Source of the DNA: Squalus acanthias | Lineage: Eukaryota | Reading direction: 5' to 3' | Length of the DNA: 64,000 nt | Assembly (NCBI GenBank): GCA_030390025.1 | Contig: CM059430.1 | Span: 67,704,001-67,768,000, forward strand | Shown: one piece after another, positions 14,961-63,039 of the stretch | How positions within the stretch are numbered: position 1 is the first letter of the stretch | Layout: every line of letters begins with the position of its first letter | Made by a program: the position numbers and the translations under genes | Notes under the pieces: model-generated | Database searches by the model: none | What the model was told of the DNA's origin: nothing | What the model saw: the letters and a program-made list of their open reading frames with translations, nothing else

Positions 14961-14978
14961 TCTTTTGAGGGGGGAGAA

Positions 14979-19712: not shown

Positions 19713-19814
19713 TTACATCCATACAGCTGAGGCTCTCTGGGTTCAAGTATACCAAGCTCACGGGCAGGGACTATTTATCAGTAATTGTTATAGTCCCCCG
19801 GGTCAGACACCTGA

Positions 19815-21172: not shown

Positions 21173-23364
21173 TAATGAGTTATTATGGAAACTGATTGAA
21201 AATGCTTTTAATATAAAATGGCACTTTTGTCTGATAAATAATTTTAATTTTCCTAGCATTCATTGGCATGATGGTTTACCTGCTGTTGTGGTGGGAAGTG
21301 CAGGTGAAAGATTTGTCGAAAATATACAAGACTGTTTCCTGACTCAACATTTTAATGAAGTAACGAGGGATAATCACAGATTGGATCTTGTGTTTAGTAG
21401 TGAGCCTGACCTCGGATCGGGCCTGCATGTGGGGGAACATCTGGCCAACAGTGACCACAAGAGTAAACGTTTCCAAATGGCGAGTAGATCTAAAGGTACT
21501 CAGAACCTTCAACTCGCACCTGCTTTCAGAAGTGCAGACTTCACCAAAATGGCAGAAGATTTGGAACAGGTAAATTTTCTAGGCCTCCTGGGTGGTGATG
21601 AGACCTATGTAGAATATAAATGAAAAGTTTTTAAGAACAAGATAAAAAAGATGGAAAACAAATTTATACCCAAAATCAAAAGAAGGAAATGTTGTAAGAA
21701 AAGCCAAGGTGGCTGATTGGTTATGTACAAAGACAAATAAGATGTAAACAAATGTTTCTCTAAATTAAAGACACTTAATACTCAACTAAACAGAGTTGAT
21801 TACAAGGAACAACTAAAGAAAACGAAGGCTACTATTAGATCAGCAAAAAGGCTAGTGAAAAAAAGGATCGTAGACAACATTGGCAGTAATGAGAAAAGCT
21901 GTTTCAGTTATGTGAAGAGTCAGAGAACTATCAAAGACTGTATTGGGCCACTGAAGGGTGTTCTAAGACAGGTTACAAAGAACTCACTGGGTATTGCGGA
22001 AATATTAAATTAGTATTTTGTCTTCACCCTTGAAACTGATGCTCAACTATTAGAATTTAATAACGTTACGAACGATATCCACCCGAGTGTCCTCAGGAAG
22101 ATGGGGCATAGGTGCGAGCCCCTAGCCTGTATTTTTAATAGTTCACTGAACTTTGGAATGGTTCCAATAGACTGGAAGGAGGCTGGTGTAGTCCTCATCT
22201 TTAAAAAGTTGACAAGATAGACCCGGGTAAGTACAGGCTCATTAGTTTAACGTCAGTAATAGGTAAGGTGCATGAAGAAATGATGAGGGATGCAATATAT
22301 GAATACATGGATAGAGAGGCACATATTAGGAACAACCAGCATGGCTTCATAAAAAGGAGGTCATGTCTTACAAATCTAATTCTATTTCTTGAAGAAGTTT
22401 CAAACTTGGTGGATGAGGGAATTCCAGTAGACTTTGTCGACTCAGATTTCCAAAAAGCTTTTGATAAGGTACCACATAAGAGACTTCTCTATAAAGACAT
22501 TAAAGATGGTGGAGATAGAAAGAGATTTGGGCATTCTAGTGCATAAATCCTTAAAGGTACAGGAGCAATGCCATATAGCCATAGCTAGAGCAAATAGGTT
22601 GTTGGGGTGTATCCATAGGACAATTGAGTACAAGACGAGGCATACTGTTTTGTCGTTGTACAAGACCTTATTCAGGCTGCACTTGGAATACTGTTTCCAG
22701 TTTTGGTCTCCTCACATGGTGGGTGATATTGAGGCTATGGAAGGGTGCAGAGGAGGGCCACTAGACTAATTCCTAGTCTAAATCATCTTAGTTATCACGA
22801 TAGGATAAAAGAGTTGGGACTCTATACCTAAGAGAAACGTAGACTTGGGGGGGAGGGGATCTGATTGAGGTTTATAAGATAACGAAGCGAATAGATTGTG
22901 TTCTAGATGACAGTTTATTTCAATTAAATAGGTTAGGCAGGACATGGGGTCAACAAAACTAAGTTTTATAAGGCTAAATCTAGGTTAGATGTCAGGAGGT
23001 GGTGCTCATGCCGTCTCATGTGGTGAATGCAGACTCACTGAATTCCTTCAAGCGAGAGCTGGATTTGTGTCTGTTTGGGGCGGGGATCACCTCTTTTATA
23101 AGCTTGGTACTGCAGGGAATTCAGGGCCAGAGTGATCTCCTGGACTCGTTTCGATCATCCAGATGGGTCGGAGAAGAATTTTCCAGATATTTTTCCATAA
23201 TTGTCCTGGGTTTCTTGTTTTTTTTGTCTCTCCCAGGGATCACATGGTTTCAGGTGGGCTGGGGTGTATATGTTCTGATACACAAGGTTTTGCAATTGTG
23301 TGGGACAGGCTCTTTGGCCAAAATGGTCTTTACCAGTCCGCCGTTGGTCGTATGTTCGTATGCA

Positions 23365-26008: not shown

Positions 26009-26062
26009 ATGTCGGCGACTTTGCTTTTCCTGTGCCTGAGTCTCCGGGGATTATTTACACAG
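26009..26062 (+). CDS. Copy A leader exon (phase 0, frameshifted relative to copy B)
   Basis: ATG...TTTACACAG|gt is homologous to the copy B leader; CTCC-GGGG versus CTCCTGGGG. Confidence 0.7.
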
Positions 26063-26231
26063 GTACCTCTTTATTCATTATCGCAGCTACTTTAATTTAT
26101 AAGATGATTCCGAGATAGTTTTCACACTAATTTAGTGAAATGTGCTCCCTCTATTTAGATTATTTTTCTCTCTTCCAACTCCATGACGTGTCTAATACAA
26201 TTAACCTGTACTTCACTATATTTTCTAACAG

Positions 26232-26552
26232 CAGCGGACCAGATTTCGTTCAGAGTGACTCAAGCGCCCAAACAAGCGACAGTATCCAGAGGAGGGAACA
26301 TCACCTTCTACTGCATATTCCCCATCTCCCAGGACAATTCCTGGGTAAGAGTGTATTGGTGGAAACAGGGTGAGAATGAATACCTGCGCACAGGCGCGGA
26401 TAACAGAAAACGATTTGGTCTGAAAAGTAAAGGGTGCGGGTTCTTTCAGGTGCGAAGCGCGACTTTCAAAGACTCTGGAGTCTATCAGTGCGCAGTGCTC
26501 CGTCAAGGAATAATTCGAGGAAATGGAACCGGATCACATCTAATTGTGCATA
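26232..26552 (+). CDS. Copy A Ig V domain exon with J-like motif
   Basis: VTQAP..ITFYC..VYWWKQ..DSGVYQC..GNGTGSHLIV; AG/GT boundaries, phase 1/1. Confidence 0.9.
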
Positions 26553-27604
26553 GTAAGTGTTATACACAGGAGAGCGGCACAGTCGAAAATATATCGAACA
26601 TAACAAACCGGGATGCTTTGTGATTGTTTTATTGCATCGCTTTTGGCAGTATAAACATGTCTATTGATACATTTCGCGATAAGTAAAGTTGTATGTTCGT
26701 GTGCTCTGTGCGAACTGCTAATTAGATATTCATTGTAACAGGCAGAGTATTGCAAAATTTGTCAATATTAACAAATTTGACTAAAACGCAACAATTTTTC
26801 CACCTGATGTCTAATAGCGGAAGTTCGGAACAAATTCCAAGCATATAACTGACTGAAAATCGTTTGTATTAATGCGTCTCTCCCAACATATACATCTTGG
26901 CCCACTTCTGATGCTCTGTCAGCCTCCATCGCTGTCTTTGCGGTTTAACATTCCTGAAATTAATTCTCACATAATGTTAGCGTCAGGGATTAGAAAGCCG
27001 GCGTGAAACTAACTGTTGATCAACGGCTTCACTCATCAAACTGGAGCTTGGAACACACAATGTTGTCACCTCACTAACCTCCAATAAATAAAACAATACA
27101 GAGGAACTGTGTTACCGAAACCTCCTGAGGTTCAACCGAGCATAATTTCATTCAGAAAATGTCATGCTTCGGCTGTGAGATCTGTCCGATATCTACCAAG
27201 CCCTCGTTTTATCATATACAGAATGCAGATTATACCTCACTGTCAATCTATGAGTGACAAACACGGAGGGTCTCGGCGCGCCAACTTACCCCCAGGGTTT
27301 AATTATTTAATACTTGGGACTATGAAACGCAAACATAGATTAGCAATCGTTGCGATGTCTGAGTAACTGCTGAGTAACTCAAAGTCTTGGACTTGATTGC
27401 GCAAGTAAATTTGAACAAATGCCGGAGTCTACGAGAGGTATGGATAGGGTGTGTGTAGATGGCATGCATAGCATTAACATGACAAGAGGCTGTGATTTGT
27501 AATGGTGGTATGATAATATAATGGACCGAAGGCAAATCAGAATCATATTTAATTTCTCGCAATGGTGCCCAGTAAACCAACTTTGTTTATTCTCTGCTCC
27601 GCAG

Positions 27605-27916
27605 CGGCCCCAGCCCCACTGAAGATTGTCTCCAGGACAACTGAAGGGAATTCACCTGCGTCTCTGACACTTGTGTGTGAAACGGCTGCGTTTTTTCCGG
27701 AGAATTTCACCCTCACTTGGTATAAAAATGGCGTCGAAACTGCATCAGGAATACATACCAGGAAAGTGCAGAAGACGGAGGGACTGTATGAAGTTTGCAG
27801 CTCTTTGACTGAGACGCAGCCTGTCCCGAGCAACACCAATTATACCTGTTTGGTTTCTCATGTCTCTCTCGAGACTCCAGCTGCTGTCACCTATGTTGTT
27901 TCTAAATCTAACCAAG
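27605..27916 (+). CDS. Copy A Ig C1-set domain exon
   Basis: LTLVC...FFPENFTLTWYKNG...LYEV.SSL...YTCLVSHVSL; AG/GT boundaries, phase 1/1. Confidence 0.9.
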
Positions 27917-28072
27917 GTACGAGGCCTACAGTCCAAAAAACAGCTTCTACTCAATTCGTAAAGAGATATATCGTAGAGGTTGTACATGCTAACAATCATG
28001 AAGTTAGTCCACAGAAATACCGTGGGAGATATCAACGAAAGCATTAAATACATGTTTTAATGTATCATTACA

Positions 28073-31000
28073 TAGGATTACATAGGATATACGGCACAGA
28101 AACAGGCCATTCGGCACAAACAGTCCATGCCGGCGTTTATGTTCCACTCGAGCCTCCTCCCGTCTTTCCTCAACTAACACTGTCAGCATAACCCTCTATT
28201 CCCTACTCCCTCATATGTGTATCTAGCCTCCACTTAAATGCATCTATACTATTTGCCTTAACTACTCCCTGTGGTAGCGAATTCCACGTTCTCCCCACAA
28301 GGAAACATTCTCTCTGTATCTACTCTATCAAAACCTTTCATAATTTTAAAGACCTCAATTAGTTCACCCCTCAGCCTACTTTTTTCAGGTGAAAAGAGAC
28401 CCAGCCGGTTCATCCTTTCCTGATAGGCATACCCTCGCATTTCTGGTATCATCCTTGTAAATCTTCTCTGCACCCTCTCCAGTGTCTCTATATCCTTTGT
28501 ATAATATGGTGACCAGAATTGTACGCAGTACTCCAAGTGTGGTCTAACCAAGGTTCGATACAGGTTTAGCATAACTTCCCTACTTTTCAATTCTATACGT
28601 CTAGAAATAAACCCTAGTGCCTGCTTTATTTGTTATGTTCGTGTTAACCTGTGTCGCTACTTTAAGTGATTTGTGTATTTGTACTCCGAGATCCCTTTGT
28701 TCCTCTACCCCACCCAGACTCGCACGCTCTAAGTAATAAGTGACCTACCTATTCTTCCTACCAAAATGTAACACCTCACATTTCTCTGTGCTGAATTTAA
28801 TTTGCCAATTATATGTCCCTTCTGCAAGATTATTGGGGTCTTCCTCTAATTTGTTGCCGTCCTCCTAAGTATTAACTATCAACCCAATTTGGTGTCATCC
28901 GTAAATTTAGAAATTGTGTTTTTGATTCCAAAGTCTAAATCGTTAATATAAATTGTGAACAACAGTGGTCCCAAAACTGATCCTTGTGGAACACCACTAC
29001 CAACCTTCTGCCACTGTGAATAGCTACCCTTTACCCCTACACTCTGCTTTCTGTCTTGAAGCCAGTTCGCTGTCCATTCTGCTACTTGTCACCTGACTCC
29101 GCATTCTCTGACCTTATTCATTAGTCTATTATGTGGTACCTTATAGAAGGTCTTTTGAAAATCTAGATAAATTAATTCTATTGTATTACCCTGGTCTATT
29201 CTCTCTATTAACTATTCAAAAAATTCAACGAATTTGTTCAAACAAGACTTTCCCTTTTGAAATCCATGCTGACTATTCATTATTATATTTTTGGCTTCTA
29301 GATGTTCCTCTATTTTCGCCTTTAGTAGCGATTCCATTATTTTTCCTACCATCGATGTTAAGCTGACTGATCTATAGTTCCCTGGACATGTTCTATCTAC
29401 CTTCATAAATATAGGTATCATGTTGGCTATCTGCCAGTCCTCTGGCACTACACCTTTTTTTAATGCATTATTAAATATGTGTAGTAATGCCTCTGCTATC
29501 TCTTCCCTGGATTCTTTTAAAATGCACGGATGTAATCCATCTGGACCAGGGTTATTTTCCTCTTTGAGATTCATCAGTTTATTTAATATATCTCCTCCTG
29601 TTATTTTAAATGCAGCTATTTAATTACTAATCTCATGATCCAATGTCATGGTGCTGGGAGAATGTTTCCCTTGGCTGGGGAGTCTAGAACCAGGGGCCAC
29701 AGCCTCAAAATAAAGTGTAGGCCATTCAGGACTGAGATGAGAAGAAATGTCTTCCAACAGATGGTGGTGAATCTTTGGAATTCACTACCCCAGAGGGCTG
29801 TGGAGGCTCAGTCATTGTGTATATTCAAAACAGAAGTCGATAGATTTCTGACTAGTAAGGGCATCAAGGGATATGGCGATAGGGCCGGTGAATGGAGTTG
29901 AGGCAGAAGATCAGCCATGATCTCATTGAATGGCGGAGCAAGCTCGAAGGGCCGAATGGCCTACTCCTGCTCCTATTTCTTATGTTCTTATGTTCTTATA
30001 TCCACCTGTTCTATCTCCCTGGAAAATATAGATAAAAAGTAATTATTTAATATTTCTGCCATCTCTCTATCACTGCCTGTGGTATTTCCCTTTCCATCCC
30101 TTAGTGGCCCTATTCCCATCTCGACCTTCCTTTTTATTGATGTGCCTGTAAAATATGTTATTATTTTGTTTTATGTTCCTTGAAAATTTAATGTCATAGT
30201 TCCTCTTTGTTTTTCCTTTTTTTCACTTCTCTCCTAACCTCCTTGTATGTTCCCTTATCATGCTCTCCTCTGCTGTCCATGTACTTAATGTATGCCTCTT
30301 TCCTTACGCTCAATTTTCCATTATATCTTTATTCATCCATGGTGTCTCAGTAGTGTTTAGCTTGTTCTTGTTTTTTTAGCAGAATATATTTTTCCTGGAC
30401 TCTGTTGAACACAGTTTTAAATGATTCCCATTGTTGTTTTATGTCATTGTTTGCCAATATCTTTGGCCATTTTATTTTCCCAATTTCTATTCTCAGCCCC
30501 TCAACCTCAGCTTTTCTCTACCCTATTACCATGGACTTTGTTATACTTATGTCCTTCTCAATTATTATTTTAAAGAGTATTATATCATGGTCAATATTGC
30601 CCAAATGTTCCCCTACTTTTACTTCTCTTATCTGCTCTGGTTCATTCCCCATTACTAGATCCAATAGCGAATCCTCCCTTCTTGGGCTTTTTAAATATTG
30701 GGTTAGAAAGGAGTTCTGTACACATTGTAGGAACTCCATTCCCTTATCCCCTTTACCGACCTCTTCTGTCCAATTAATATCTGGGTAGTTAAAATACCCC
30801 ATGATTATTATTCTAAGTGTTTTAATAATTTTCCTAATTTGTTTGCATATTTCATCCTCCACATCCCTTCCACTATTAGGTGGCCTGTTGACTACCCCGA
30901 TTAGTGTGATTTACCCTTCATTATCTTTTATCTCTATCCACATGCATTCTATTTCTGTCATGCTTGTAGCTGCGTCAATTTTTTCTACTGCCATTATGTT

Positions 31001-31690
31001 ATCCCAAATAAGTACAGATACTCCACCTCCCCTTTTTCCCTCTCTATCTTTTCTAAATATGTTATGCCCTGCAATCTTTTCTGTCTCAGTAATCCCTACT
31101 ATGCCTGGCTCCTCACAATGTATGATTGCCTCCAGCTCCCCTGTTTTATTACGGTCACTGTGTGCTGTCCAGACATTTTTAATAGCATTTACTTTCACTT
31201 CATTTTTAACCATCTTTTCACACACCTGTTCTATAACTCTATTTATTCCCTGGCCATCAATGTACTCCCTTACTTTATTCTTTCCTATGCTCTCATTTCC
31301 TGATTTGTTTATATTTTGGCTGGTTTCATTTCTTGTGTATCCCTCCCCCCATCTTACTAATTTAAAGCCTATGCCACGTCGCTATGCACCCTTTCTGCTA
31401 GGACACGGGTCCCATCCCGGATCAGGTGGCGCCCGTCCCATTGGTACAGCTACTTCCTGTCCCAGTACTGGTGCCAGTGTCCCATGAAAAGGAACCCTCT
31501 TTCCCACACCATCCCTTTAGCCACGTGTTAATTCCTCTAATCTGAATGCTTCTATGCCAATTTGCACGTGGCTCGAGTAATAATCCAACGGTTGTTACCC
31601 TCGATGTCCTGCATTTCAATTTAGCTCCTGACTTCAGCAGTACCTCCTACCTGTTGCTACCTATGTCGTTTGTTCCACGTGGACCAGAAC
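28073..31690 (-). mobile_element. Decayed CR1 LINE (ORF1 end, EN, RT, 3' end)
   Basis: Fragments INTWLKGWC, GGGVSVLI, FNYPDINW, LLDLVMGN, PGPDGLHP, YRSVSLTS and YCVQFWSP. Confidence 0.88.
29650..30000 (+). mobile_element. CR1 3' fragment nested in an antisense CR1
   Basis: MFPLAGESRTRGHSL..VVNLWNSLPQ; TTCTTATG tail repeats. Confidence 0.85.
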
Positions 31691-31794
31691 AACCCGATGT
31701 GTTGTAAAATGGGTTATATCGCCCGCCACACATATATTCTCAGTCAAACTTTATTTGATTGCAAATTACTCTATTTGATGTATGATAAATATAA

Positions 31795-32420
31795 GAACAT
31801 ATTAACATAAGAAGTAGGAGCAGCAGTAGTCCATACGGCCCATCGAATCTGCTCCACCATTCAATACTTCAATACCTTCTACCTCAACACCACTTTCCCA
31901 TCCTATCCCCATATCCCTTGATTCCCTTAGTGCCCAAAAATCTATCGATCTCTGTCTTGAATATTTTCATCGACTGAGCATCCATTGCCCACTGGGGTAG
32001 AGAATTTCGAAGATTCACAAAAATCTGAATGAATAAATTTCTCCTCATCTCAGTCCTATATGGCCGACCCCTTATCCTGAGATTATGACGACTAGTTCTA
32101 GATTCTCAAACCGAGGGAAACATCCTCTCAGCATCTACCCTGTCAAGCCCTCTAAGAATTTTATACATTTCAACGATATCACCTTTCATTTTTCTAAACT
32201 CCAGAGAATATAGGCCCATTCTATTCAATCGCTCCTCATAGGACAGCCCTCTCATTCCAGGAATCAAACTAATGAACCTTCGTTGCACTCCCTCTAAGGC
32301 AAGTATATACTTCCTTAGGTAAGGAGGTCAAAACGGTAAACAGTACACCGGGTGCTGTCTCACCAAATCGCAATATAATTGCAGCAAGACTTTCTTACTC
32401 TTATACACCAACCCCTTGGA
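31795..32420 (-). mobile_element. CR1 3' fragment
   Basis: LSYEERLNRMGLYSLEFRKMKGD and a CR1 3' UTR. Confidence 0.85.
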
Positions 32421-33241
32421 AACATAAGCAGCAATGTATATTTTGTCCGATTATATTTCCTCACCTTATGAATAATAATTTCCAGTTTCGTCTGTTTCCA
32501 TGTTAATAATGTTTTGTTCTTTACCATTGTCTGTTCTCCTTGCAAGACTGTTACCAAGAGCTACAGTCATGTTGTTTGCTCTGAGATTTCTCCCAATGCA
32601 GTTCCCGATCCTGACCCCACTTTCGGATACTTCAGCTAAATACCACCAAGATGTTTATCTTTGTTGCTCCATTATATTTCACATTCTGCCCGTTAATAAT
32701 CATTTTTTCTTTCTTTCCATGTTAAAATGGTTTTATTAGCTTACGTTATCTAGATTTCCTGCATCAAGTCTGTTATCAGGAGCTGCATTGAAGATGCCTG
32801 CGCCCCGGCTTCTCCCAATGCAGTTCCCGATCATGATCTCCCTTCCGGCGAACCCTCGTAAAGAGTTCTGAAATTAACCCACTGGCCAACACTTACCCCT
32901 TACCCCTCCATGGCATTGTGGGTTGGACCTGTTTCATACATTTCACTTAAGCTGTGCTAACAGCCTGGCTGCAGTACAGCCGCTTACATGGTTTTAATAA
33001 CAACTGTTTGCCTCACCAGACAATAATTCATAAACCACCCCGCGTTGATCTCCTTTACTATTTAGGGACAGACACAGATCACCACAGTAGCACCAACATT
33101 CATGCGATAATGGAGATTATATGGTTGGCTGACTCTAGTCGTGTATTGTAGCTCAGGTTGTTTGTGTGTTATTCTGATGAGCAGCAGCAAAGAAACTGGC
33201 AAACCGACCCATAAACATTCCTTCCATACACGGATTTACCG

Positions 33242-33316
33242 AACAAACAAGTGACTTACGCGACGCTAGAATTGTCAGGCTCCAAAAAATCGAGGAAACC
33301 CAAAAATAACAAATGA
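33242..33316 (+). pseudogene. Copy A relic of the last cytoplasmic exon (ITIM VTYATL)
   Basis: NKQVTYATLELSGSKKSRKPKNNK* is homologous to copy B GTYATLELSGPEKAGKSKNNK; flanking intron and UTR are also homologous. Confidence 0.8.
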
Positions 33317-34814: not shown

Positions 34815-37800
34815 GTATCGAGTCTGAGCGAGCGGACCTGCGGGAGGAACGGAGTCGGAGACCGGGGATAAAGGTAAGGCGGAGCAGAGATCTGGGAGTC
34901 TGAGCGAGCGGACCTGCGGCAGGAACGGAGTCCGCGACCGGGGATAAAGGCAGCGCGATGCAGAGAGAGACTGAGCCAGCGGACTACCTGCGAGGGAAAC
35001 AGTTGGCATCGACAAAACGAAAGAGTGACGTCAGAATTCAAAAGGTGTCGCTGGCACAAGGGAGCTGAGAGGTGAGTATAGGGAAAGTATTTGTGGTAAG
35101 TGTTGTTGTTCTGTTTTCAGTATATTTCTGCTAAGTAGTTCATAGCATATCTAAAGATGGAGGTGCTGATTGGTGGGAAGCTGTTGAGTGTTTCTTCTTA
35201 AGATTATTTCTGCTAAATTACCTCCATAGTCTGGTAAATAGAGGCATGGCAGGGCAACCCAGTCCCATGATTTGCACATCCTGTGCAATGTGGGATATCC
35301 TGGACGCTTCTTGCGGCCTGGATGACCACGTGTGCAGGAAGTGTCGCCAACTGCAGCAACTCGAGCTCCGGGTTTTGGAGATTGAGTGGCAGCTGGATTC
35401 ACTACAGTGCATCCACGAGGCTGAGAAATACTTGGAAAGCATGTTTCTATAAGTGGTCACCCTGCAGCCTCAGAATGTGCACGTAGAGAGGGAATCGGTG
35501 ACCACCAGACATGGAAAGAGGTCCAGGCAGGTAGGGCAGGAATCCCCAGAGTGCATCTCCCTCGCTAACTGGTTCGGAGTTCTGGGAACTGGTGGGGTGA
35601 TGGCTCCTCTGGGGAGAGCAGCCAGAGCCAAGGCCACGGCACCATGGGTGGCTCAGCTGCAGGGGGGGGGGGGGAAGAAGAGTGGAAGAGCAATAGTGAT
35701 AGGGGATTAATTGGTTAGGGGAACAGATAGGCATTTCTGCTGACGCAGACGTGACTCCGGAATGCTATGTTGCCTCCCTGGTGCCAGGGTCAAGGATGTC
35801 ACTGAGCAGCTGCAGGACACTCTGAGGTGGGAGGCTAAACAGCCAGAGGTAGTTGTCCATATTGGTACCAACGACATAGGCAGAGAGAGGGATGAGGTAC
35901 TGCAGGCAGACTATAGGGAGTTAGGGAAGAGATTAAAAAGCACGACCTCAAAGGTAGTAATCTCTGGATTACTCCCGGTGCCACGTGCTAGTGAATACAG
36001 GAATAGGAGGATAGAACAGATGAATGCGTGGCTGGAGAGATGGTGCAGGGAGGAGGGCTTTAGATTCCTGAGGCATTGGAACCATTTCTGGGGAAGGTGG
36101 GACCTGGAAAAGCCAGACGGGTTACACCTCAACAGAGCCGGGACCAATATTCTCACGGGGAGGTTTGCTAGTGCTGTTGGGGAGGGTTTAAACTAGCTTG
36201 GCAGGGGGATGGGCACAAGCATGTAGGAGTGGAGGGGAGGAATGCGGTGCATGGAAGAGTGAGTGTGTTGGATGGTACTGGAGCGGAAGGTAGTGCTGGA
36301 GGCGGAAGTAATATCATTTTAGAAAGGAGCACACTAAGAAAGACTACGAATTTTTTTTTAATGTGTTTACAATGCATGTACATAAACGCTCAAAATGTGG
36401 TGAAAAAGGTTGGTGAGCTACAACCACAATTAGTCGTGTGGCAATCTGATGTTGTGGCAATAACGGAAAGGTGGCTTAAAAACGGTGAGGACTGGGCACT
36501 TAATATTTAAGGCCATGATGTGGAGATGTCGGTGTTGAACTGTGGTGGACAAATGTGAGAAGTCGCACAACACCAGGTTATAGTCCAACAGGTTTATTTG
36601 AAATCACAAGCTTTCGGAGCGCTGATTTTAAGGGTACATGGTGTTCAGAAAAGATCGGGAATGAATAAAGGGAGGTGAGTTGGCAGTGCGGATTAAGGAA
36701 GACATTGTAATGTTGGAAAGGAAGGATGTTCTTGAGGGGACAAGGACATAATTCATTTGGTTAGAGTTGAGGAGCAAAGAGGGTATGATCAGGCTATTGT
36801 GGGTATTCTACAGGCCTCCAAATAGTGAGAGGGAGGTAGAGGAGGAAATCTGCAGGGAAATCGCAGAGACATGCAAGAGCTATAGAGTGATGATATTGGG
36901 GGACTTTAATACCCAAATATCGATTGGGATAATGCTAGAGTAAAGGGAAAGAAGGAGGAGGAATTTCTGAAATGTGTTCAGGAGAATTTCCTTGACCAGT
37001 ATGCTCTTGGCCCAAGTAGGAAGCAGGCATTGCTGGATCTGTTGCTGGGGAATGAGTTGGACCAGGTCGACCAAGTGTCTGTGGGAGAACACTTGAGTAC
37101 GAGTGATCATCATATCATAACATTTAGATTAGCAATGGAGAGGAGCAAGGAACAATCCAGAGTGGAACTTCTAACCTGGAATAGGGCTAACTTCAATGGG
37201 ACGCGAAAGGATCTAACCAGGGTAAAATGGAACTGAAGACTGCCAGGACAAACTGTAACGGAACAGTGGGTGATCTTTAAGAGGAGATGTTCCAAGTACA
37301 GTCCAGGTACATTCCAACAAGAGTGAAGCGGAAGGGAACCAAAGCAAGGGCTCCTTGGATGACGAGGGAGATTGAGAAGATGATGAAACAAAAAAAGAAG
37401 GTGTATGGTGAATGTCAGGTGAATTCTTCGAGGGAGAACCAGACCAAATACAAAAAGTTGAGAGGGGAAGTGATGACGAAAATAAGATTGGCAAAGAGAG
37501 AATATGAGAGTAGAATGGCGGTTAAAATAAAAGGGAACCCAAAAATCTTCTCTAAACAGTAAGCGGGTAGAAAGATGTGGGTTGGGGCCTATTAAGGACA
37601 AAGAAGGTGATATATGCTTAGAGGCACAGGGCAAGGCTAGAGTAATCAATGAATACTTTGTATCGTTGTTTACTAAGGAGATGGATGCTGACAAAATATC
37701 GGCAGAAGTGGAACAAGTAGAAGCAATGAAAGTGGTGTAAATTGATCGACAGGATGTACTAGAAAGACTCGGTATGCTTAGAGTGGAAAAGTCGCCTGGT

Positions 37801-39350
37801 CCAGATGGCTTCCATCCCAGGTTGTTAAGGGAATTTAGGAAGGAGATAGCAGAAGGGCTTGCCATAATTTTCCAATTTTCCCTAGATGCGGGGTAGGTGT
37901 CTGAGGATTGGAAAGTGGCAAATATGACACCATTGTTCAAGAAAGGGTGTACGGACAATCCTAGTAACTGCAGGCCAGTCAGTTTAACATCAGTGGTGGG
38001 TAAAGTTTTGGAAACAATAATCAAGGAAAAAATGAACGGGCACTTGGAGAGGTTTAAGCTAATTAAGGAGAGCCAATATGGATTCGTAAAAAGCAGATCG
38101 TGTTTGACTAATCTAATTGAATTTTTTGATGAAATAACAGGGAGGATTGATGAAGGGAATGCAATGGATGTTGTCTACATGGATTTTAGGAAGGCGTTTG
38201 ACAAAGTACCACATAGAAGGCTATTTAACAAAATTGAGGATCATGGAATAGGTGGGTCAGTGGCAGCTTGGATAAGGAATTCGCTTAAGGACAGAAAACA
38301 GCGAGTTGTGGTAAATTGCTGTTTTTCAGGTTGGAGGATGGTAGATAATGGTGTTCCTCAAGGTTCAGTGCTGGGGCCACTGCTTTTTTTGTGATATATA
38401 TAAATGACCTGGATATTGGAATACTGAGTAGAATTTCTAAATTTGCCAATGACACCAAACTTGGGGGTGTGGCAAACAGTGAGGATGATACCAATCGACT
38501 ACAATAGGACATAGAAAGGCTAGCAGAATGGGCAGACAAGTGGCAGATGGAATTTAATACAGAGACGTGTGAGGTGATGCATTTTGGCAGAAGGAACAGG
38601 GAGAGGCAATATACACTTAATATTACAGTTTTAAAGAGTGTGCAGGGACAGTGGGACCTGGGAGTTAATATGCATAGGTCCCTAAAAGTGGCAGGGCAGA
38701 TTGAGAGAGTTGTTAGCAAATCATATGGGATCTTGGGCTTCAGTAATAGAGGTATTGAGTACAAAAGTAGAAAAGTTATGCTGGACCTTTATATAGCGCT
38801 GGTTAGGCCAGAACTGGACTATTGTGTCCAGTTCTGGTCACCACCCTTTAGAAAGGATGTGAGCACTTGAGAGGGTGCAGAGGAGGTTTAGCAGAATGGT
38901 TCCGGAGATGGCGGATCTTAGCGACAAGGACAGGTTGGAGAAACTGACTTTCTTTTCATTAGAACAAAGGAGGTTGATGCGTGATTTGATACAGGTATAC
39001 AAATTATGACGGGTTTGGATTGGCTAGACGGGGAAAGGCTGTTCCCACTAGTTGATGGCACAAGAACTAGTGGAAACAGATCTAAGGTTTTGGGCAAGAG
39101 ATACAGGGGGGATGTGAGTAAACACTTTTTTACGCAGCGAGTAGTGATGACCTGGAACTCTCTGCTACGGGAGTTGTGGAGCGGAGACACTCAATGTTTT
39201 CTAGGGGAGACTGGATAGACACTTGAGGGAAATAAACTTGCAGGGCTACGGGGATAGACCGGGGGAATGGGACTGACTGAATTACTCTACAGAGAGCTGG
39301 CACGGACTGGATGGGCCGAATGGCCTCCTTCTATGTTGTTATGACTCTTA
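34815..39350 (+). mobile_element. Near full-length but disrupted CR1 LINE (repeat-containing 5' UTR, Zn-finger/esterase ORF1, EN-RT ORF2)
   Basis: ORF1 CTSC..CRKC, AIVIGD, HIGTND, DGLHL (SGNH esterase); ORF2 YINAQ, VVAITE.W, PGPDG, QGSVLGP; stops and frameshifts present. Confidence 0.92.
36513..36626. mobile_element. Short Penelope-like fragment inserted in CR1
   Basis: CACAACACCAGGTTATAGTCCAACAGGTTTATT...GCTTTCGGAGCGCTG flanked by direct repeat TTTAAGG; family assigned from recall. Confidence 0.55.
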
Positions 39351-50015: not shown

Positions 50016-51762
50016 TTAGCAGTTGTCACCGGTGAAGGCAGTACTTCAGCAGTTAGCAGAGGAGAATATAACCCAGGGTTTATCTTTGCATTCCAGATAC
50101 AAGATAGTAAGTAGTTCATCGTAAACAAGGTTAAATCATTCTGTGGAATATTTCAGCAGTTTCAGTTGCTGGACTTTATTTATCCTACAAATAAAATAAC
50201 GAGGACGGGAATTCAAGTTACATTAAAACAAATTAAAAGGGACAATTTTCCTCTTCTTGTATTGGGCAAGAGCATTGGGACTTCCCATCTAGTGCTTCCC
50301 GACCATTTGACCAAAGCTTACCCTACTCCACCCCAAAATATACTGCGAAATACTACCACACCAATCATGTACTTCACACCTTGGTCCATTTCCCAGTGTG
50401 TCCTGATCCTGTGACTGGCCCGAATGCTGACATGATTCAATGGGAGAACAAAGTAATAAATCTAACAGCGTTGCGCATGTCATGTTACCGTCAACTATTA
50501 TAAAATTATACCTCCACGTGATTATTGGAAATTGACAAAATAAACTTGTCACATGTCGGCACACCTTGTCACCAGTGAAGGCCATGATTAGCAGGACGGT
50601 GTAATTAGAGCTTGACAAGTTTACCTCGGCAGTGCAGTTTGCAGTATAAATGTGGGTACAGGAATTTCTGTTGGGAAAACAGAAAACTTACGACGGAATG
50701 TATGACTTTAAAAGGTGACTGATTCCCACTTCTTTGTCCAAGATTTAGGTCGCACGTGGTAGTGTTTCTTTCTTTGTTTCAACGTCCATTTTATTCCGAA
50801 TTTGCCGAGACTCTTGGGACGTTTTCTTCTATATTAAAGGCGCTATAAACTACAGATTGTTCTTGTTGTTCGATCCTATGGGGGGTTTTGGTTTTGATTG
50901 GCGGCATTCACTACTCTCCATACTTGGCCAAATCCCTCAGATAAACTGATGAGTGAGTGATTACTTATATCAATCGGGAGGGTATAGGTAATAATTTGTG
51001 ACGTAACGCACAAAGCCTTACCTACATTTTAAAGTATGGCGTCCGTAGACACGTGCAATATTAGGGCACTTTAGAATACCCTTCAAATCACAGTGAAACC
51101 TTCCATGCACTCGAATGAGAAGATTACCGCTCACTTTTCTTCACATATTTTTGCCGATTAAGCTCTTGATCTGGAAGCTCATTAGATGCACTTTTTTATC
51201 TAGCTAAGATATCCGCTATCAAACCAATTTGCACAGTTTAATCATGGTTTCCACTATTTGGCTCCAATTGGGAGAAATTTATTGCATTAGCGCCTCGCGT
51301 TAGCGCCTCCGGGGGGCACGAATGGGGCGCAACCGGTGGCGGCGATAGTACGGACGCCCGCCAAATTCAGGTGGAGGTTTGCGGCGGCAGTAGCCAATAG
51401 CGCCACAATCTCCTGCGCTCTGAGATCATGATGTCAACTGGGTGTGCAGCACCCCGGTAGCACCCCGGTAGTGCCCCAGCTCTGAAATTCACTCTCGCCC
51501 CCTGCCTGAGCACCTGACGGTAGCAAGGACAGGTAGTGGAGTCGGTATGCAGTCGGATGAGCGCTGGAGGAGCCTATATAAAGGCGTCAACCTCAGTTTT
51601 TTTTTTAGTCGGCAAAGAATGCTGCCTTGTAAGTATGACATAGGCAAACAGGCGTTTTGAGCGAATTCAGCGTTTTCCACTTGAAGGAGTCTTCTGCCTC
51701 GGGAGAATACTTTATCAATTCCATTTCGGTGAGATTTAAAAGTGCAACATTTCCCTAATTTA

Positions 51763-52900
51763 ATGGAGGCTGTTCTGCCACTGGACCTCGATCTCCAGCG
51801 TCAATGTAGGAGGCAGCGGAGGCAGAGAGAAAGATTGCAAAATGTGGCCAGAGGGAGGAGGGCCAACAGGGCTCTAAACAGGAGGACTTACCCTCCCAGG
51901 GTGCTCTGGCAGCATTTCTCCTACATCAATATAACTGAGGAGCAGTGCCTTAGAATGCTCCGCTTCACCAAGGGCCTGGTCACGGATCTCTGTCACCTCC
52001 TGCCGCCTGACCTTGAGCCTCAATTCAGGACCACCACGGCTTTCTCAGTGGCAGTCAAGGTGACCATCGCCCTCAATTTCTACACCAGCAGATCATTCCA
52101 GTGTGCAACAGGAGACATATCTAACATAGCACAGTTTGCCATCCATTGCTGCATCTGCGAGTTCACAGACGCTCTCTACAGAAGGAGAAGGGATTACATT
52201 TCCTTTCCCAGGACCAGAGAGAAGCAGCATGAGCATTCATGTGGCTTTTCCAGGATAGCGGGCTTCCCCATGGTGTAGGGCACAATTGACTGAACCCACG
52301 TTGCTTTGTGGGCACCTCATAACAATCCTGAGTTATTCTGTAACCGTAAAGGCTACCACTCACACAATGTGCAGTTCGTGTGTGACCACACACAGCGCAT
52401 ACTCACCATCAATGCCCTCTATCCTGGCAACAGCCACGATGCCTTCATCCCATGCCTGCTCTGTTCCAGACACCACATCAAGTTTACGGATGGCTGCTGG
52501 GAAACAAGGGCTATCCGCTCTCCACCTGGCGCATGACTCCCCACCGCAACCCCAAAACTCGTGCTCATTACTCACACAGTGAGCCAGGCTGCCACCAGGA
52601 ACATAATTGAGCAGACCATGGGAGTGCTCAAGCAATGGTTCTGCTGCCTTCCCCGCTCAGGAGGAGCCCTCCAATACTCGGCTGAATTGTTGTCACTTTT
52701 CGTCGTCGTCTGCTGCATGCTGCACAACTTGGCCATCCTAAGGGCGCAGCCATTACCACCAGGCATAGCCGCAGCACCTCAGGAAGAGGAAGAGGGAGAC
52801 GAGGAGGAGCAGGACGAGAAGGACGAGGAGGTACAGGAGCACGAACAGCAGCGATGTAGGAGCCAGCCAATTCATCAGCCTTGTGGAAGGGCGATCCGTG
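51763..52900 (+). pseudogene. Harbinger transposase pseudogene
   Basis: Homologous to 419-1579; TAG at 52276 and frameshifts; NRKGYHS.NVQ and CCMLHN retained. Confidence 0.9.
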
Positions 52901-53081
52901 ACTTCGGTTCCAATGAATTCAATGCCACTTCCCAGCTGCTCATCCAATCCCTATCATTCCATCAATTTCTCATTCCATACCACACCCCAAAGCTGAAATG
53001 TGACACAGCAGCATCTCTGTGAGATGTCAATAATAAATGTATCCAAAGTCAATAACCACATATATAAAACAACAATATTAA

Positions 53082-54943
53082 TTAAAGACCCTTGTGCAAA
53101 CCCTTATTTGCCCTCTTCACAATGCCTTTCCCTAATCTGCTGCTCCTACGTAGTGTCTCCCCAATAGTTGCTGCAGGGCTGGTGGAAGGCTGCTGAGTGT
53201 CGGTGCCAGAGACTACAGGTGGCCTTGCAGGAGGTCCTCGGCCAGCTCTGGGCCTGGAAGGGCCAGCTGTACACTGCACCACTTCAGGATGGGCGACGTC
53301 AGGCTAGCCTGGCTTGATGACAGGCAGCAGCAAGGGCAATGGCGGAATCGCAGAGATGGGAGCAGGAAGGCTGCCATCCTGAGAGAGGGCAGCAGGTCCC
53401 TGCTCCACTGACACACACCCAGTGTAGCACCTGAGCATCCCTATCAATCTGCTGCAACGCAAATTACTGGGCAGCTGCGAAACCGTGAAATCCCCTGTGG
53501 ACTGAGATGGACCCAGCGATGTTAGCAGCAGTCAGACTGCATGAGAGCAGTTTGAGAATCGATGGCATCAACCATTGACTGCATTACAGCAATACAACGT
53601 GGCGTGGCTTCCACCTGTGCTGCAATGGATGCTGCCACATCGCCCATGACATGCAGTATGATGTCTGGGTCTCCATGATCTCTCAGGGGGTCCACCATCA
53701 TTTGCAGACTGCCAAGGATGTGCTCCATGGTGTGCGCAAAGCTCTGTGTAATGATAGAGGCGGACTGCTCGACGCTCCTTACCATTGCCGACAGCCTCTC
53801 ATCACCTATCATCTCGGTGTGCATGCCCATCAGCCTTCTTGTGATCGCCTCCCCATCGATGTCCTCATCTGAGTCCTGCACAGCAGCACTCACACAAGAC
53901 CTCGCCCTCCGGGGAGATGGCTCCCAGGCTAACCTTTTCCCCTGGCCTTGCTGCAGCCCGCTCTTCCCCGGTGCATCACCCAGTGCAGACCCCTCTACTA
54001 AACATGCCTCTAAAGATCGCGTAGTGCCAGTATCTGAGTTGGTGCCTGCAGCTGAGAGATGCAGTGATGCGCTGCTTTATTTCTCCTGCTCATCTCCTTC
54101 CTCACTCTCAGTGGAAGGCTCAGGGACAGGCTGGTCATCTGGCTGCTGATTATCTGAAAGCATAAAGGCACAAGACTCGCTTTAAGGTGAGGGCAGTGGG
54201 GCAGGAAGGGAACAAGGAATGCAGACAGTATCAGGAGCTGGAAATTCGGAAAGGCTTGATGTGCAAGGGAGAAGTGGGATGAGACAAGGAGAGGGGATGA
54301 ACATACGGTGCTTGCCCCCAAGGGGTTTGATTTTGCCGAGGGCCATGGAGCCCACGACCTGCTGCCCATTGAGTCGCAGCACTCGCACCTCCAGGTCTGA
54401 AAGCTGCTGCAGCTGCACAGCACCCATGACTGTTCACTTGTACTCCCTCCTATTTTGGGCCATCTTAGCTTGCAAATAAACGAATGTGTGTGAGTCAGAG
54501 TCCAGCTACGTGTTTGGTAGATATGACTGTCGTAGTTGAATAGCTGTGATTGTAGTCAAGGCATGAGATGTGGATGTGAGTTTAAGTAGGTACAGATGCT
54601 TGGTGGGTGAGTGGTGAGGGTGTGGTGGTTTGTGCTGTGCGGTGTGTACAGACTGAGGTAGAGATGCTGGCATGTAGGACCTTTTGAAACATCTACTCAC
54701 CTTGAGCACCCGAGTTGGGTCGTTGAATTTCTTCAGGCACTGTTTCAGGCTGTGGGTGACCACACTACTGGCCGAGAGTTCCTGGGCGACTTCACTTCTC
54801 AATGCCCTGAAGATCTGGGACAATTGCTTCCTTCCAGTGTTCGGGAACAGCACTGCCCTCCATTGCTCCACTCCCACGATCAATGCTTCCAATGCTTCTT
54901 CCGTGATGTGATGTGCTCTCTCCCTGGGAGTGGGATCAGCCAT
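53082..54943 (-). pseudogene. Harbinger Myb/SANT gene pseudogene
   Basis: Exon 1 54943-54701 (RERAHH...QCLKKFND); exon 2 acceptor mutated (CAA); exon 3 frameshifted; AGPSRPR..QQPSTS tail homologous. Confidence 0.82.
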
Positions 54944-56076
54944 CAGGATCAGGGGATTGATTTGCTTGAAGTTCGCCCTCACAACCAGCACTGCTGATAA
55001 TGAGGATCTGCACAATGATGCAATCGCCCTTTTCAGAGCTGGAAGGAGCCAGTGTGAACTATCATTCCCGATTGTACTGCACCTGAAATTCATTATCGAA
55101 CTGCTGGTAGCGCCCCTGTAGCGTCCTACTGAGGTCATTAGCGCTTGAGTTCGCGCTCCAGCTCTTTCATGGAGAGCTAAAAGCCAATTTAGGGAAATCT
55201 CAAAATCATTAGCACCTGGAGCTAATTTTTCACGATTTCAAAATTAGCGCCCCAAACGGGGCAATAACGATTTTCTTCCCCCAATTATTTTAGTCTGAAC
55301 CCGCTTAAAGCAGGAAATTGTATTTGCATAGATACCCTGGCCCGAAGCACATATCGGCACCTCTCTAATGGGATATCACTCCCTATTCCCTAAATGTTCA
55401 ACATGGTTATTATAATGTAAAAATAAACCAAACGTTATGACACCGTTCAGATTCAGGTCACTGTGTTCGGAATAACATCAGGTCTCCCGAGATATAACAC
55501 GTCACAATGAATACGATCTCCCCAGTATCCCGTGGAATGTGCAGCGAATTATAGTAGGACATTCTCCATACAGACAACTGCTGGCTTAATCAGCTATTTT
55601 CTTACCTTAAGTCTTTCTCATAAAATATTGCTGCTGTTATTCAAGAACTAATTATAAAAAATCGATAAATGTTCCCAGTTTGTTCAGATTTTACATTTCT
55701 AATATATTGTGTGACGTTAACAGTAGCGTACAACCGAAGGGAAGTGCAAGAATATTTGCCTCAGGAAATTCACTACAAGGAATGTGCACATCTCACATCT
55801 TAAACTAAGATAAACCAATTCAGCGATTGATGGTAAATTCTCCATTTGAAATGCGGACAATATTTTATTCTAATACTTTGTTGATCGTGATGGCTGCCAA
55901 AGAGCAGAACCGTCATCAAATGTCACTTCACAAACGAAAGCTACTTTGTGAACCAACAGTCACAGGACGTCAAACGTCACTGTGGCGCATTTCAGGTTAA
56001 ACAATTAGCAAGCCCTGCTTTCAGTGGTAAACACACGGTCTGTGCAGTCAGTGATCAGTTGAATCTTTTGCTCGGA

Positions 56077-56137
56077 ATGTTGTCGACTGTAATGTTTCCT
56101 TCCCTTTTCCTGTCTCTCCTGGGGATCATTTACACAG
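56077..56137 (+). CDS. IgSF VJ-C1 receptor copy B (SIRP-like), exon 1, signal peptide
   Basis: MLSTVMFPSLFLSLLGIIYT-G|gtaact; hydrophobic leader, phase 1. Confidence 0.85.
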
Positions 56138-56326: not shown

Positions 56327-56647
56327 CTGCTGCGCGTACTTCGATCAGCGTGTCTCAAACTCCCGAACAAGTAATTAAATTAAGGGGGACAGACATAACC
56401 TTCCATTGCGTAATCCCCCTTTCTCATGACAATTCAGGGGTAGAAGTGCGCTGGTGGAAACATGATGAGAATGAATATCTGCAAACAGGAGCCGATAACA
56501 GAAAACGATTTGTTCTGAAAAAAAAAGGAGGCGGTTTCTTTGAGTTACTGAACGTGACTTTCCAGGACTCTGGAATCTATCACTGCGCAGTGATCCGTCA
56601 GGGAAGAATTATTGGAAATGGAACAGGATCACATCTAACTGTGTGCG
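56327..56647 (+). CDS. Copy B exon 2, Ig V domain with J-like motif
   Basis: VSQTP..ITFHC..WWKH..DSGIYHC..GNGTGSHLTV; AG/GT boundaries, phase 1/1. Confidence 0.92.
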
Positions 56648-57597: not shown

Positions 57598-57909
57598 CTG
57601 CCCCAACTCCAGTGAAGATTGTCTCCAGGACACCCGAGAGCAATTCAGCTGCGTCTCTGACTCTTGTGTGTGAAACGGCTGAGTTTTACCCGGGCGAATT
57701 AACCCTCGTTTGGTATAAAAATGGCGTCGAAACCGCAACTGGGATAAATTCCACTAAACGGCAGAACACTGAGGGACTGTATGAAGTTTCCAGCTCTTTG
57801 GAAGAGACGCAGCCTGTGCCGAATGGGGCTGTTTACATCTGTTTGGTATCTCATGTCTCCCTCGGTACTCCCGCCATTGCCATCCACACAGTTGCTAATT
57901 CCGACCCAG
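57598..57909 (+). CDS. Copy B exon 3, Ig C1-set domain
   Basis: LTLVC..FYPGELTLVWYKNG..LYEVSSSL..YICLVSHVSL; phase 1/1. Confidence 0.92.
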
Positions 57910-59066: not shown

Positions 59067-59177
59067 AATCTGATGGTAAATATCGTTATATCTGGGGTCT
59101 TGGATGTCGGTTGGGTGGATTGGCGTTTCTGGTGCTCATGATCATCATTGGGACGAGATGCAGTTTGAAGAATAAAG
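59067..59177 (+). CDS. Copy B exon 4, transmembrane segment
   Basis: cttccAG acceptor; ESDGKYRYIWGLGCRLGGLAFLVLMIIIGTRCSLKNK; G|gtaggt, phase 1/1. Confidence 0.82.
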
Positions 59178-60875: not shown

Positions 60876-60919
60876 GTAAACAGGAAAGTATAACAATACT
60901 AGACCCTCATGAAGAGCTG
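60876..60919 (+). CDS. Copy B exon 5, short cytoplasmic exon
   Basis: tttgcAG..CTG|gtaggt; GKQESITILDPHEEL; phase 1/0 links exons 4 and 6 in frame. Confidence 0.7.
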
Positions 60920-61436: not shown

Positions 61437-61532
61437 GGAGCCAATGACGAGATCGTGGCTTATGCTGCAGTCGACTTGAGCAAAGCCAGGAAAACTCCAA
61501 GATTTAAACGTGAAGAGGAGAGCTCAGCGTAA
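61437..61532 (+). CDS. Copy B exon 6, ITIM (VAYAAV), ending in premature TAA; exon donor at 61538
   Basis: atgcAG acceptor; GANDEIVAYAAVDLSKARKTPRFKREEESSA*TQ|gt. Confidence 0.75.
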   Translation, partial: GANDEIVAYAAVDLSKARKTPRFKREEESSA

Positions 61533-61745
61533 ACTCAGGTGGGGCTGAAAAGCAGATAAGAGAAACACAGATCACCCGTGGAGCACCAAAATTATTGTAA
61601 TAGCGGAGTATTTGGGGCTGTTCTGACTTTCACCGTGTGTTGTATCTAAAGCGTTTTGTGTGTTATTCTGCCGGCTGCCTTGAGCAGCAAACCACAAACT
61701 GGTAAAACGATCAATCAACAATATTTCCAAACATTGGCTTTTCAG

Positions 61746-61919
61746 ATAAAACAAGGGACAGCCCGGGACAAGGGGACGTACGCGACTCTAGAATTGTCTG
61801 GACCCGAGAAAGCGGGAAAATCTAAAAATAATAAAATAAGCGCAGAATATGCCGAGATACAGACGAAAACTCCAAGAAGAGTAACAAAGGCCGTCTACAC
61901 AGATGCAAGAACGAAATAG
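61746..61919 (+). CDS. Copy B exon 7, tyrosine motifs GTYATL / AEYAEI / AVYTDA (coding only if the upstream TAA is absent)
   Basis: ttttcAG acceptor, phase 0; open to TAG at 61917-61919; AATAAA at 62005 and 62216. Confidence 0.72.
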   Translation: MKQGTARDKGTYATLELSGPEKAGKSKNNKISAEYAEIQTKTPRRVTKAVYTDARTK

Positions 61920-63039
61920 AGATGCAATCTTGGACACATTAATCAGTTTATTGTTGTATATTGATTCATCCCGCAGCCATATGAACTCACTGATTTCAAT
62001 GGAAAATAAAACCTGGCACTTTCTATAATGGGGCCGAAGATCTGATGGGGTAGTTTACCGCCCAAGCAGTGAAAGTGTTAATTATCTCCATCTGCAGGTA
62101 TATCCGTGTTCTCCAATCCCCAAGATGTAATACATTCTAGTATCATAGTATATAATGCAGCTATGCTAATTGTTTCATTATTTGGAGATTATTCGTCAGA
62201 AATATAAATGCTTGTAATAAAAATAATTTTCAAGTTAAATCGGTATTATTTAATATATGACGATCCTATACTATTTCAATTAGAATGATAGGCTAACTGA
62301 CATGCTGTAAATATTTATCACCATGTATACAAATGGATGTCTTACATCTCCCGTTTAAAATTCAACGATAACACATATGATAATTTCTTCTGGGAACAAA
62401 ACGGAAAAAATGGGTGCTGACTTCAGGGTTTGTGTCACTGTAGTCAACTCCTATTCCAGGTCATGCTCTTGGAGTGGAGGACAGGAAGTTTCAATCCCTG
62501 GCCTCATCCATAAACTCTCTGAACTCAACTTACGATTGACGGTACAAGGGACACTCTTGCCTGAACTTTGTGATGGCTACCAATTTCTTTCGTGTTAGAA
62601 AAGATTGAATGAACTACGATCTAGGTATTTAAAAGGTTGCGCGGCCTCGTCAAGGGAGATATAAGCAGGCTGTTTGATTTAGACCCTTAACATGAAATAG
62701 AGGTTCGACTTTAACAAGCCTAAATGAAGAAGGGAATTGAACTGCAAACACTCACTCCTTTTAGAGTGGTTCCCGCATCAGGAAAGGATAACTCGTGGTT
62801 TAAAATGTTAAATTGAGATGTATTTGGGAAGTAGATCAACTAAATTAAAGGATTAGAACATTGTGCAACTGATACTAGAAGAATGGTAGCCCAGCAGTTC
62901 CAGTGACTAAGTGTTTGACTCCGAATCTAAAGACCATATAAGAAGTGAATTAGTTGCCTCTTGCTTCGTGCAACTATCATGGTTGGTTGACTGTCTGCAT
63001 TATCAAGCAGGAGCATAGACACAGTACCAAGTATATTAG

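Follow-up and report, generated by a model that had tools for sequence, protein, structure and literature searches.

A premature stop and a transmembrane arginine in a V-C1 receptor gene of Squalus acanthias: a possible conversion from inhibitory to activating or dual signaling

Results

A receptor gene of Squalus acanthias encoding a V-set domain, a C1-set domain, a predicted transmembrane (TM) segment, and a tyrosine-bearing cytoplasmic tail carries a stop codon in the column of a conserved tail tyrosine, together with an arginine inside the predicted TM segment. It lies on the + strand of the 64-kb stretch of DNA analyzed here (the window). The stop, the arginine codon, the intact V and C1 domains and splice signals, and a family-wide pairing of TM arginine with short tail are all seen directly in the sequence. 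We tentatively propose, at somewhat short of an even chance, that they record a real conversion of an inhibitory receptor into an activating or dual one that keeps one ITIM. The first-pass annotation of this DNA had suggested a signaling switch from the stop; Arg246 lends that idea independent support, although one ITIM is retained and the conversion is something we infer.

Gene model and domain organization

The seven-exon model was built from splice signals and homology, not from transcripts. Its six introns are all GT-AG, with phases 1, 1, 1, 1, 0, and 0. The features are as follows, with identities counted against the horn shark protein P0025.

56077..56137, + strand: exon 1, leader, phase 1, ATG at 56077; 14/20 residues identical
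56327..56647, + strand: exon 2, V-set with a J-like G strand (GNGTGSHLTV), both Cys and the Trp present; Pfam V-set E = 8e-11; 85/107 identical
57598..57909, + strand: exon 3, C1-set; Pfam C1-set E = 2.5e-13; 70/104 identical
59067..59177, + strand: exon 4, predicted TM segment (best 21-mer, residues 240-260), of the long-tailed type by sequence
59108..59110, + strand: Arg246, codon CGG, inside the predicted TM segment; 15 uncharged residues follow, then Arg262
60876..60919, + strand: exon 5, where the cytoplasmic tail begins, phase 1 to 0; 11/15 identical
61437..61538, + strand: exon 6, 102 nt, phase 0/0, with the kept ITIM VAYAAV (Tyr292) and the premature stop (...EEESSA-stop-TQ); 21/33 identical
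61530..61532, + strand: premature TAA stop at codon 315, aligned with a conserved Tyr; the donor at 61539 follows after 6 nt
61746..61919, + strand: exon 7, with an open frame of 57 codons and three tyrosines (in GTYATL, AEYAEI, and AVYTDA), translated only if exon 6 is skipped; 36/57 identical
62005..62010, + strand: AATAAA, candidate polyadenylation signal, which would give a 3' UTR of ~286 nt past the premature stop

Every one of the 12 splice sites is intact, as are the four Ig cysteines and the two tryptophans. The V domain and its J-like strand (residues 117-126) share one unsplit exon, which is followed by C1. Read through the stop, the frame has 374 codons, the same length as its best full-length match, the 374-aa H. 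francisci protein XP_067905827 (P0025), which has TAYAQI in the stop column. Exons 6 and 7 resemble repeats of one two-tyrosine module, with a tyrosine spacing of 23 in each, and relatives carry from none to three or more such modules (e.g., P0024, P0045, and P0094).

Family placement

All named matches come from cartilaginous fish. In a tree of V plus C1 sequences (37 rows), the gene falls into a 10-row clade (support, 100/99) that also includes proteins from horn shark, bamboo shark, catshark, and smooth-hound, among them catshark P0002 and P0022 and smooth-hound P0003 and P0024. The V-exon search gave no protein more than 80% identical among 90 candidates, and exon 7 alone, searched against longer proteins, gave 23 candidates, none at an E value of 0.1 or better. 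The database names of the relatives (SIRP-beta-like, SHPS-1-like, tapasin-related) are automatic. Sharks' proteins named signal-regulatory protein beta-1-like or SHPS-1-like (XP_067905827 of H. francisci, XP_038662970 and XP_038662022 of S. canicula, and XP_078067246 and XP_078067247 of M. asterias) share with the gene its clade, the V-C1-TM layout, tail blocks matching exons 5 to 7, and repeated tail trimming. None of them, however, has a stop at this tyrosine or an arginine in column 246, and their Arg forms have the arginine in column 244 and no ITIM.

Like mammalian SIRP-alpha, -beta, and -gamma, the gene combines V with C1, has a joined VJ-type V exon, and encodes a multi-tyrosine inhibitory tail. 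The SIRP ectodomain contains two C1 domains (V-C1-C1), whereas here one C1 exon stands between V and TM, and a search of the window for family sequences revealed no other. With P0025 as the query, a solved-structure search ranked SIRP best (E = 2e-14 and 6e-13), barely above Ig heavy chains (E = 7.5e-13); an ESM Atlas search returned SIRP-alpha-like and generic V/C1 clusters at 0.96, adding nothing to the structure matches. Because of its one C1 domain and its weak SIRP similarity, we regard the gene as SIRP-like in layout rather than as a SIRP. Non-rearranging VJ-C1 genes (PRARP, UrIg, and NKp30-type) are likewise described as having V and a GxG-type J strand in one undivided exon ahead of C1, whereas UrIg2 differs in its extra constant domains, V-C1-C2-C3 (PMC10751288, PMC11599192).

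A broken paralogue and mobile elements share the window with the receptor gene.

26009..33316, + strand: broken paralogue A, with V (26232-26552) and C1 (27605-27916) open and an exon-7 remnant (33245-33316) that has no acceptor
347-3822: Harbinger-type DNA transposon, with an open 410-aa DDE_Tnp_4 transposase on the + strand and a Myb/SANT-like frame on the - strand
10732-15173, + strand: LTR retrotransposon of the Gypsy type, whose single open gag-pol frame of 1325 aa includes protease, RT, RNase H, and integrase
about 18200-23000, 28200-31500, and 35700-38900, both strands: many decayed LINE-type fragments, of which the frame at 18965-19774 (- strand) scores as reverse transcriptase
about 51700-55250: a further Harbinger-like copy, decayed and sharing 66-70% identity with the first one, whose end is <1 kb upstream of the receptor ATG

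Paralogue A, from a sister clade of the family, matches the receptor gene at 65/106 residues in V and 69/103 in C1. Its 54-nt leader exon is one base short and out of phase, with no upstream ATG to rescue it, and about 3 kb, including TM and exons 5 and 6, is missing. The family search detected no near-identical inhibitory twin of the receptor gene within the 64-kb window, and no unrelated host gene or flanking marker gene was found there. The two 195-nt LTRs of the Gypsy-type element are identical at 195/195 bases, which marks a very young insertion. The decayed Harbinger-like copy may affect the receptor promoter.

The stop codon and the tyrosine motifs of the tail

Everything that the first-pass annotation had seen at the stop was confirmed. 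Bases 61530-61532 read TAA in exon 6, at codon 315, giving a 314-aa product instead of one of 374 aa, and a single base separates this codon from TAC or TAT. The VAYAAV tyrosine is residue 292, 23 before the stop codon; the distance from the stop to the last junction is the same 6 nt in the predicted exon model; and the frame of exon 7 (61746-61919) stays open over 57 codons. The stop had been taken to replace a tyrosine. Exon 6 is covered by 27 of the 84 rows, and at the stop column 21 of these have Tyr, 3 have His, 2 have Phe, and 1 is gapped, so that the second tyrosine is replaced or deleted in 6/27 relatives.

The four to five tyrosine motifs credited to the full tail proved to be five tyrosines and four YxxI/V/L motifs, but only two fit the ITIM consensus, (S/I/V/L)xYxx(I/V/L) (PMC12151841): the kept VAYAAV and the one lost to the stop. 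Two looser YxxL/I motifs and one tyrosine without a motif make up the remainder, GTYATL and AEYAEI missing the consensus at position -2 and AVYTDA at +3. In P0025 and P0022 the motif of the second tyrosine is TAYAQI, which fits the ITSM consensus, TxYxx(V/I) (PMC12151841); the S. acanthias version with Tyr would fit ITIM. The 314-aa form does retain the one ITIM claimed for it (VAYAAV, residues 290-295). It lacks the tandem tyrosine pair, spaced by ~23-25 residues, that would engage SHP-1/2 through both SH2 domains, since the second tyrosine is the stop; tandem binding of this kind is described for the PD-1 ITIM-ITSM pair (PMC12151841).

The stop lands exactly on an ITIM tyrosine, as had been emphasized, but this is little above chance, with 10/150 single-base stop routes hitting one of the five tyrosines of the tail. 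The stretch from the first ITIM to codon 315 holds 12 such routes, 2 of them at codon 315, and any of the 12 would act alike on the tail. The implied rarity was likewise overstated: the catshark and smooth-hound relatives have lost exon 7 coding too, and in horn shark it is damaged. The tails of P0022 from catshark and P0024 from smooth-hound stop after nine exon-7 residues, and the first tyrosine of that exon is missing from P0025 of the horn shark. In a shifted frame, exon 7 of the window begins T-R at the point where P0022 and P0024 end; comparison at the protein level suggests that a one-base frameshift ended the smooth-hound tail in exon 7. Another predicted protein, P0008 (H. francisci XP_067906051), lacks seven residues around the same second tyrosine, a gap that could reflect either a genuine deletion or a gene prediction that avoids a stop. 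The stop itself is associated with no repeat and no hairpin, and Rfam gave 0 matches within the 64-kb window. Because this shark family often trims its tails and tyrosine codons are one base from stops, the stop taken alone is ordinary.

An arginine in the predicted TM segment

Arg246, which the first reading of the sequence overlooked, is specific to this lineage (A246R); the long-tailed relatives have Ala or Thr. It lies inside the best 19-, 21-, and 23-residue hydrophobic windows, its burial depth being a prediction. Being only 6-7 residues into the predicted helix, it could reach the membrane surface without binding anything. A basic residue occurs in this exact column in 0/68 relatives, with Arg two columns earlier in 15. 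The TM exon is identical to those of long-tailed P0025, P0022, and P0024 at 30, 28, and 26 of 37 residues, compared with 23 and 19 of 37 for the Arg forms P0002 and P0003. Since the TM exon is of the long-tailed type and the arginine occupies a column that relatives do not use, Arg246 most likely arose de novo. Gene conversion by a TM exon of the Arg type was considered and rejected, as the TM exon is nearer to the long-tailed relatives and the Arg column differs.

Changes specific to this lineage are found near the stop (T313S, A316T) as well as in TM (A246R, V247L). In the ectodomain they amount to 6/107 in V and 7/104 in C1, against 13 and 22 for the horn shark, making this branch the shorter of the two and giving no sign of decay beyond the tail.

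TM basic residues and short tails are paired across the family

A profile search added many more relatives, and of the 173 proteins collected the strongest 96 were used; 5 long multi-domain chains and 72 weak matches were excluded. Removal of 12 near-duplicates left 84 rows for counts, 68 of them with a callable TM. A basic residue falls in TM columns 242-247 in 17/68 relatives: 15 of them have it as Arg in column 244, one in 245, and one in 247. At least two YxxI/V/L motifs are present in 1/17 relatives with a TM basic residue and in 32/51 without (Fisher p = 4e-5); all of these relatives are gene predictions, and many of their short tails may be incomplete ones. An alignment-free count covering 54/85 rows points in the same direction (1/12 versus 24/42; p = 0.003). 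Among 14 independent pairs drawn on the ectodomain tree, on average 9.4 show the same direction, 0 the opposite, and 4.6 are ties (median sign-test p = 0.004). If one Arg exon spread by recombination, the 14 pairs do not represent separate origins; the association itself still holds.

Fewer than two motifs are found in 16/17 relatives with a TM basic residue and also in 19/51 without one, and because of the latter, a short tail by itself does not imply activation. One-motif tails with no TM arginine are seen in P0047, P0006, and P0018. P0087 has an arginine in another shifted column and a 23-residue tail, while its twin, P0064, is long-tailed.

The pairing is sharpest between near-identical proteins of one species. 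Catshark (S. canicula) P0002 and P0022 are identical at 196/200 residues outside the cell, as are smooth-hound (M. asterias) P0003 and P0024 at 195/200, and in each pair the first has the arginine and a short tail and the second no arginine and ITIMs. Catshark P0023, like P0002, is 97-98% identical to P0022 outside the cell and differs from it in the same way. The tails of the Arg forms in these pairs are 7-10 residues long. To judge from their sequences, the catshark and smooth-hound twins follow the pattern of paired receptors, apparently activating and inhibitory. A literature search, short on subscription journals, found no publication describing the shark V-C1 family or these twins as paired receptors.

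Transcript fate, splicing, and age of the stop

As had been claimed, the mRNA is likely to escape nonsense-mediated decay (NMD), because the last predicted junction follows the stop after 6 nt and a candidate poly(A) signal begins at 62005. TAA-A is not known to be a leaky stop context that would favor read-through. In zebrafish, 3.5-8% of genes with an intron <50 nt past the stop rose upon EJC or Upf1 impairment; the effect in human cells was strongest at 36 nt or more between stop and intron, and a TCR-beta reporter cited there was sensitive at 10 nt (PMC7310861).

Skipping of exon 6 (phase 0/0), a possibility the first-pass annotation missed, would leave an open 340-aa frame with exon 7 retained. 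The exon 6 acceptor has 13/17 pyrimidines, and its donor scores 7.0 in a rough U1 match versus 7-8 for the other five. Internal exon-6 donors that avoid the stop were rejected as the main route: in-frame combinations exist, yet they score <=5 against 7 for the canonical donor on the same rough match.

The stop had also been called a recent allele. This is not established, as our simulation of exon-7 survival allows an old fixed change. The simulation of neutral decay used an indel ratio of 0.088 per substitution, measured between the two paralogues, with the transition bias and the frameshift share of indels assumed; a neutral exon 7 and its splice sites stayed intact with frequencies of 0.79, 0.50, 0.10, and 0.035 at 0.01, 0.03, 0.10, and 0.15 substitutions/site, respectively. 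The open exon 7 would thus date the stop loosely, at under about 0.1-0.15 substitutions/site. The receptor gene and paralogue A differ by ~0.39 in non-coding DNA, and since survival of a neutral exon 7 is low at larger distances, the model places the stop after the duplication and, probably, later than most of the terminal branch. Lineage-specific changes are in no excess in exon 7 (6/57, versus 8/85 in TM plus exons 5-6; p = 1.0).

Discussion

A proposed path from inhibition to activation or dual function

In the conversion that we propose, the mRNA would escape NMD, with the stop 6 nt from the last junction, and the 314-aa protein would reach the cell surface. Loss of the partner tyrosine 23 residues past the first ITIM would remove two-point binding of SHP-1/SHP-2, by analogy with the PD-1 ITIM-ITSM pair (PMC12151841). 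Arg246 would recruit an ITAM adaptor with an acidic TM segment, and the single ITIM VAYAAV would be retained beside adaptor docking through Arg246. Of the two orders, it is more likely that the arginine preceded the stop, since going from Ala to Arg takes two base changes and exon 7 is still undecayed. A purely activating receptor would have no ITIM in its tail, and one is left here; a TM basic residue and a kept inhibitory motif in one chain, the mark of a bifunctional receptor, are both present as Arg246 and VAYAAV. Speaking against conversion are the column of Arg246, unused in 68 relatives, its shallow position in the predicted helix, the short tails that also occur in relatives without a TM basic residue, the absence of a near-identical inhibitory twin from the window, and the ITIM that is kept. 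As to adaptors, a 2014 survey reports the FcR-gamma chain as absent from the shark genomes of that time (PMC4016189), and six adaptor and SIRP names gave no match in one elephant-shark supplement (PMC3964593).

Alternative explanations

The stop may be real and the protein made while Arg246 is idle, in which case the product would be a weakened one-ITIM inhibitor or a near-silent decoy, another tail-length variant. We consider this possible though unlikely. Such variation is common in the family, where six of the 27 informative relatives have the second tyrosine replaced or deleted, P0047, P0006, and P0018 have one-motif tails without the arginine, P0022 and P0024 have lost exon 7 coding, and P0025 has lost the first exon-7 tyrosine; the column of Arg246 is, moreover, unique and fairly shallow. 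However, a TM basic residue is found in only 1/33 rows with at least two motifs, so that both changes arising on one branch by coincidence is less expected. Alternatively, the stop and the arginine may both be neutral lesions in a decaying copy freed from selection. Paralogue A, 30 kb away, with its out-of-phase leader and no TM to exon 6, shows that state; the lineage-specific changes cluster near the stop and in TM, and a Harbinger-like element ends within 1 kb of the ATG. Decay is nonetheless improbable given the intact splice sites, Ig cysteines, and tryptophans, a branch shorter than that of the horn shark in V and C1, and a sole stop that sits in the tail although 97/150 single-base stop routes fall in the ectodomain plus TM.

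The main transcript might instead skip exon 6 and encode the 340-aa receptor, without VAYAAV and the stop but with the exon-7 tyrosines. Exon 7 would then be open because it is translated, with no need for a young stop. The 0/0 phase of exon 6 and the open skip product allow this, P0018, P0011, and P0043 lack exon 6 but have exon 7, and exon 7 has no excess of lineage-specific changes. We nevertheless rank exon skipping low, as quite improbable, because the splice signals of exon 6 look normal, with a good acceptor, a donor on par with the other five, and internal donors at <=5; in addition, GTYATL in exon 7 lacks the hydrophobic -2 residue present in most relatives. Least probable, by a shade, is that the TAA is a base-call or consensus error in a gene for an ordinary 374-aa receptor. 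That TAA is one base from a Tyr codon and that exon 7 is intact fit an error, as does, weakly, the base missing from a short homopolymer in the leader of paralogue A, a long-read type of error. The exon length is normal, however, so a substitution error would be required, and the 3978-nt Gypsy frame, the 1233-nt transposase frame, and the two perfectly matching LTRs speak for accurate sequence. With assumed priors, the rough posterior for a sequence error is 0.2-8% at QV40-50 and 15-47% at QV30.

Comparison with known receptor switches

Activating KIR arose via a TM charge and a stop in the ITIM (Abi-Rached & Parham 2005, PMC2213150). According to the same source, rat Ly49s3 acquired the charge first, whereas in KIR both changes map to one branch and their order is unreadable. 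KIR2DS/3DS and activating Ly49 thus resemble the shark gene in having gained a basic TM residue and lost ITIMs by a stop inside an ITIM, and the near-identical ectodomains that paired KIR and Ly49 receptors retain (PMC2213150) have a parallel in the catshark and smooth-hound twins. They differ in that KIR uses Lys (with DAP12) and has its stop in the membrane-proximal ITIM, with none left (PMC2213150), whereas the shark gene has Arg, with its stop in the second motif and one ITIM left; the shark ectodomain, V-C1, is not related to theirs by descent.

The combination of TM Arg with a kept inhibitory motif is reported for chicken CHIR2C/CHIR1C and for KIR2DL4 (Laun et al. 2006, PMC1458963). In CHIR2C the TM Arg is in a shifted position and is thought to be independently gained, as proposed for Arg246, and the CHIR cluster contains many pseudogenes (PMC1458963). 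CHIR and KIR2DL4 have C2-type domains and belong to the leukocyte receptor complex (PMC1458963), unlike the V(J)-C1 shark gene. Bifunctional receptors are a functional class, not a family of common descent. By analogy, the gene resembles the KIR/Ly49 switch and CHIR2C/KIR2DL4 bifunctionality, but it belongs to none of those families.

Implications for cartilaginous fish

The stop gains weight from the TM arginine and the paired-receptor pattern, not from the stop alone. If Arg246 does nothing, the stop amounts to an unremarkable nonsense change in an immune cluster with fast turnover. More broadly, and a little more tentatively than for the conversion itself, the data may point to an undescribed family of paired shark receptors with V-C1 ectodomains, where activating forms with a TM arginine arise repeatedly from ITIM-bearing ones. 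The gene would then be a transition state like KIR2DL4, with a new TM arginine, a young stop, the silenced exon intact, and one ITIM, reached independently in cartilaginous fish. The inhibitory-to-activating switch has so far been documented in primate KIR, rodent Ly49, and chicken CHIR. If our proposal is true, the TM charge, fresh stop, and intact silenced exon would make each switch step testable in one molecule, the question would arise which adaptor a shark TM-arginine receptor uses, and paired-receptor dynamics would extend to a V-C1 family of cartilaginous fish.
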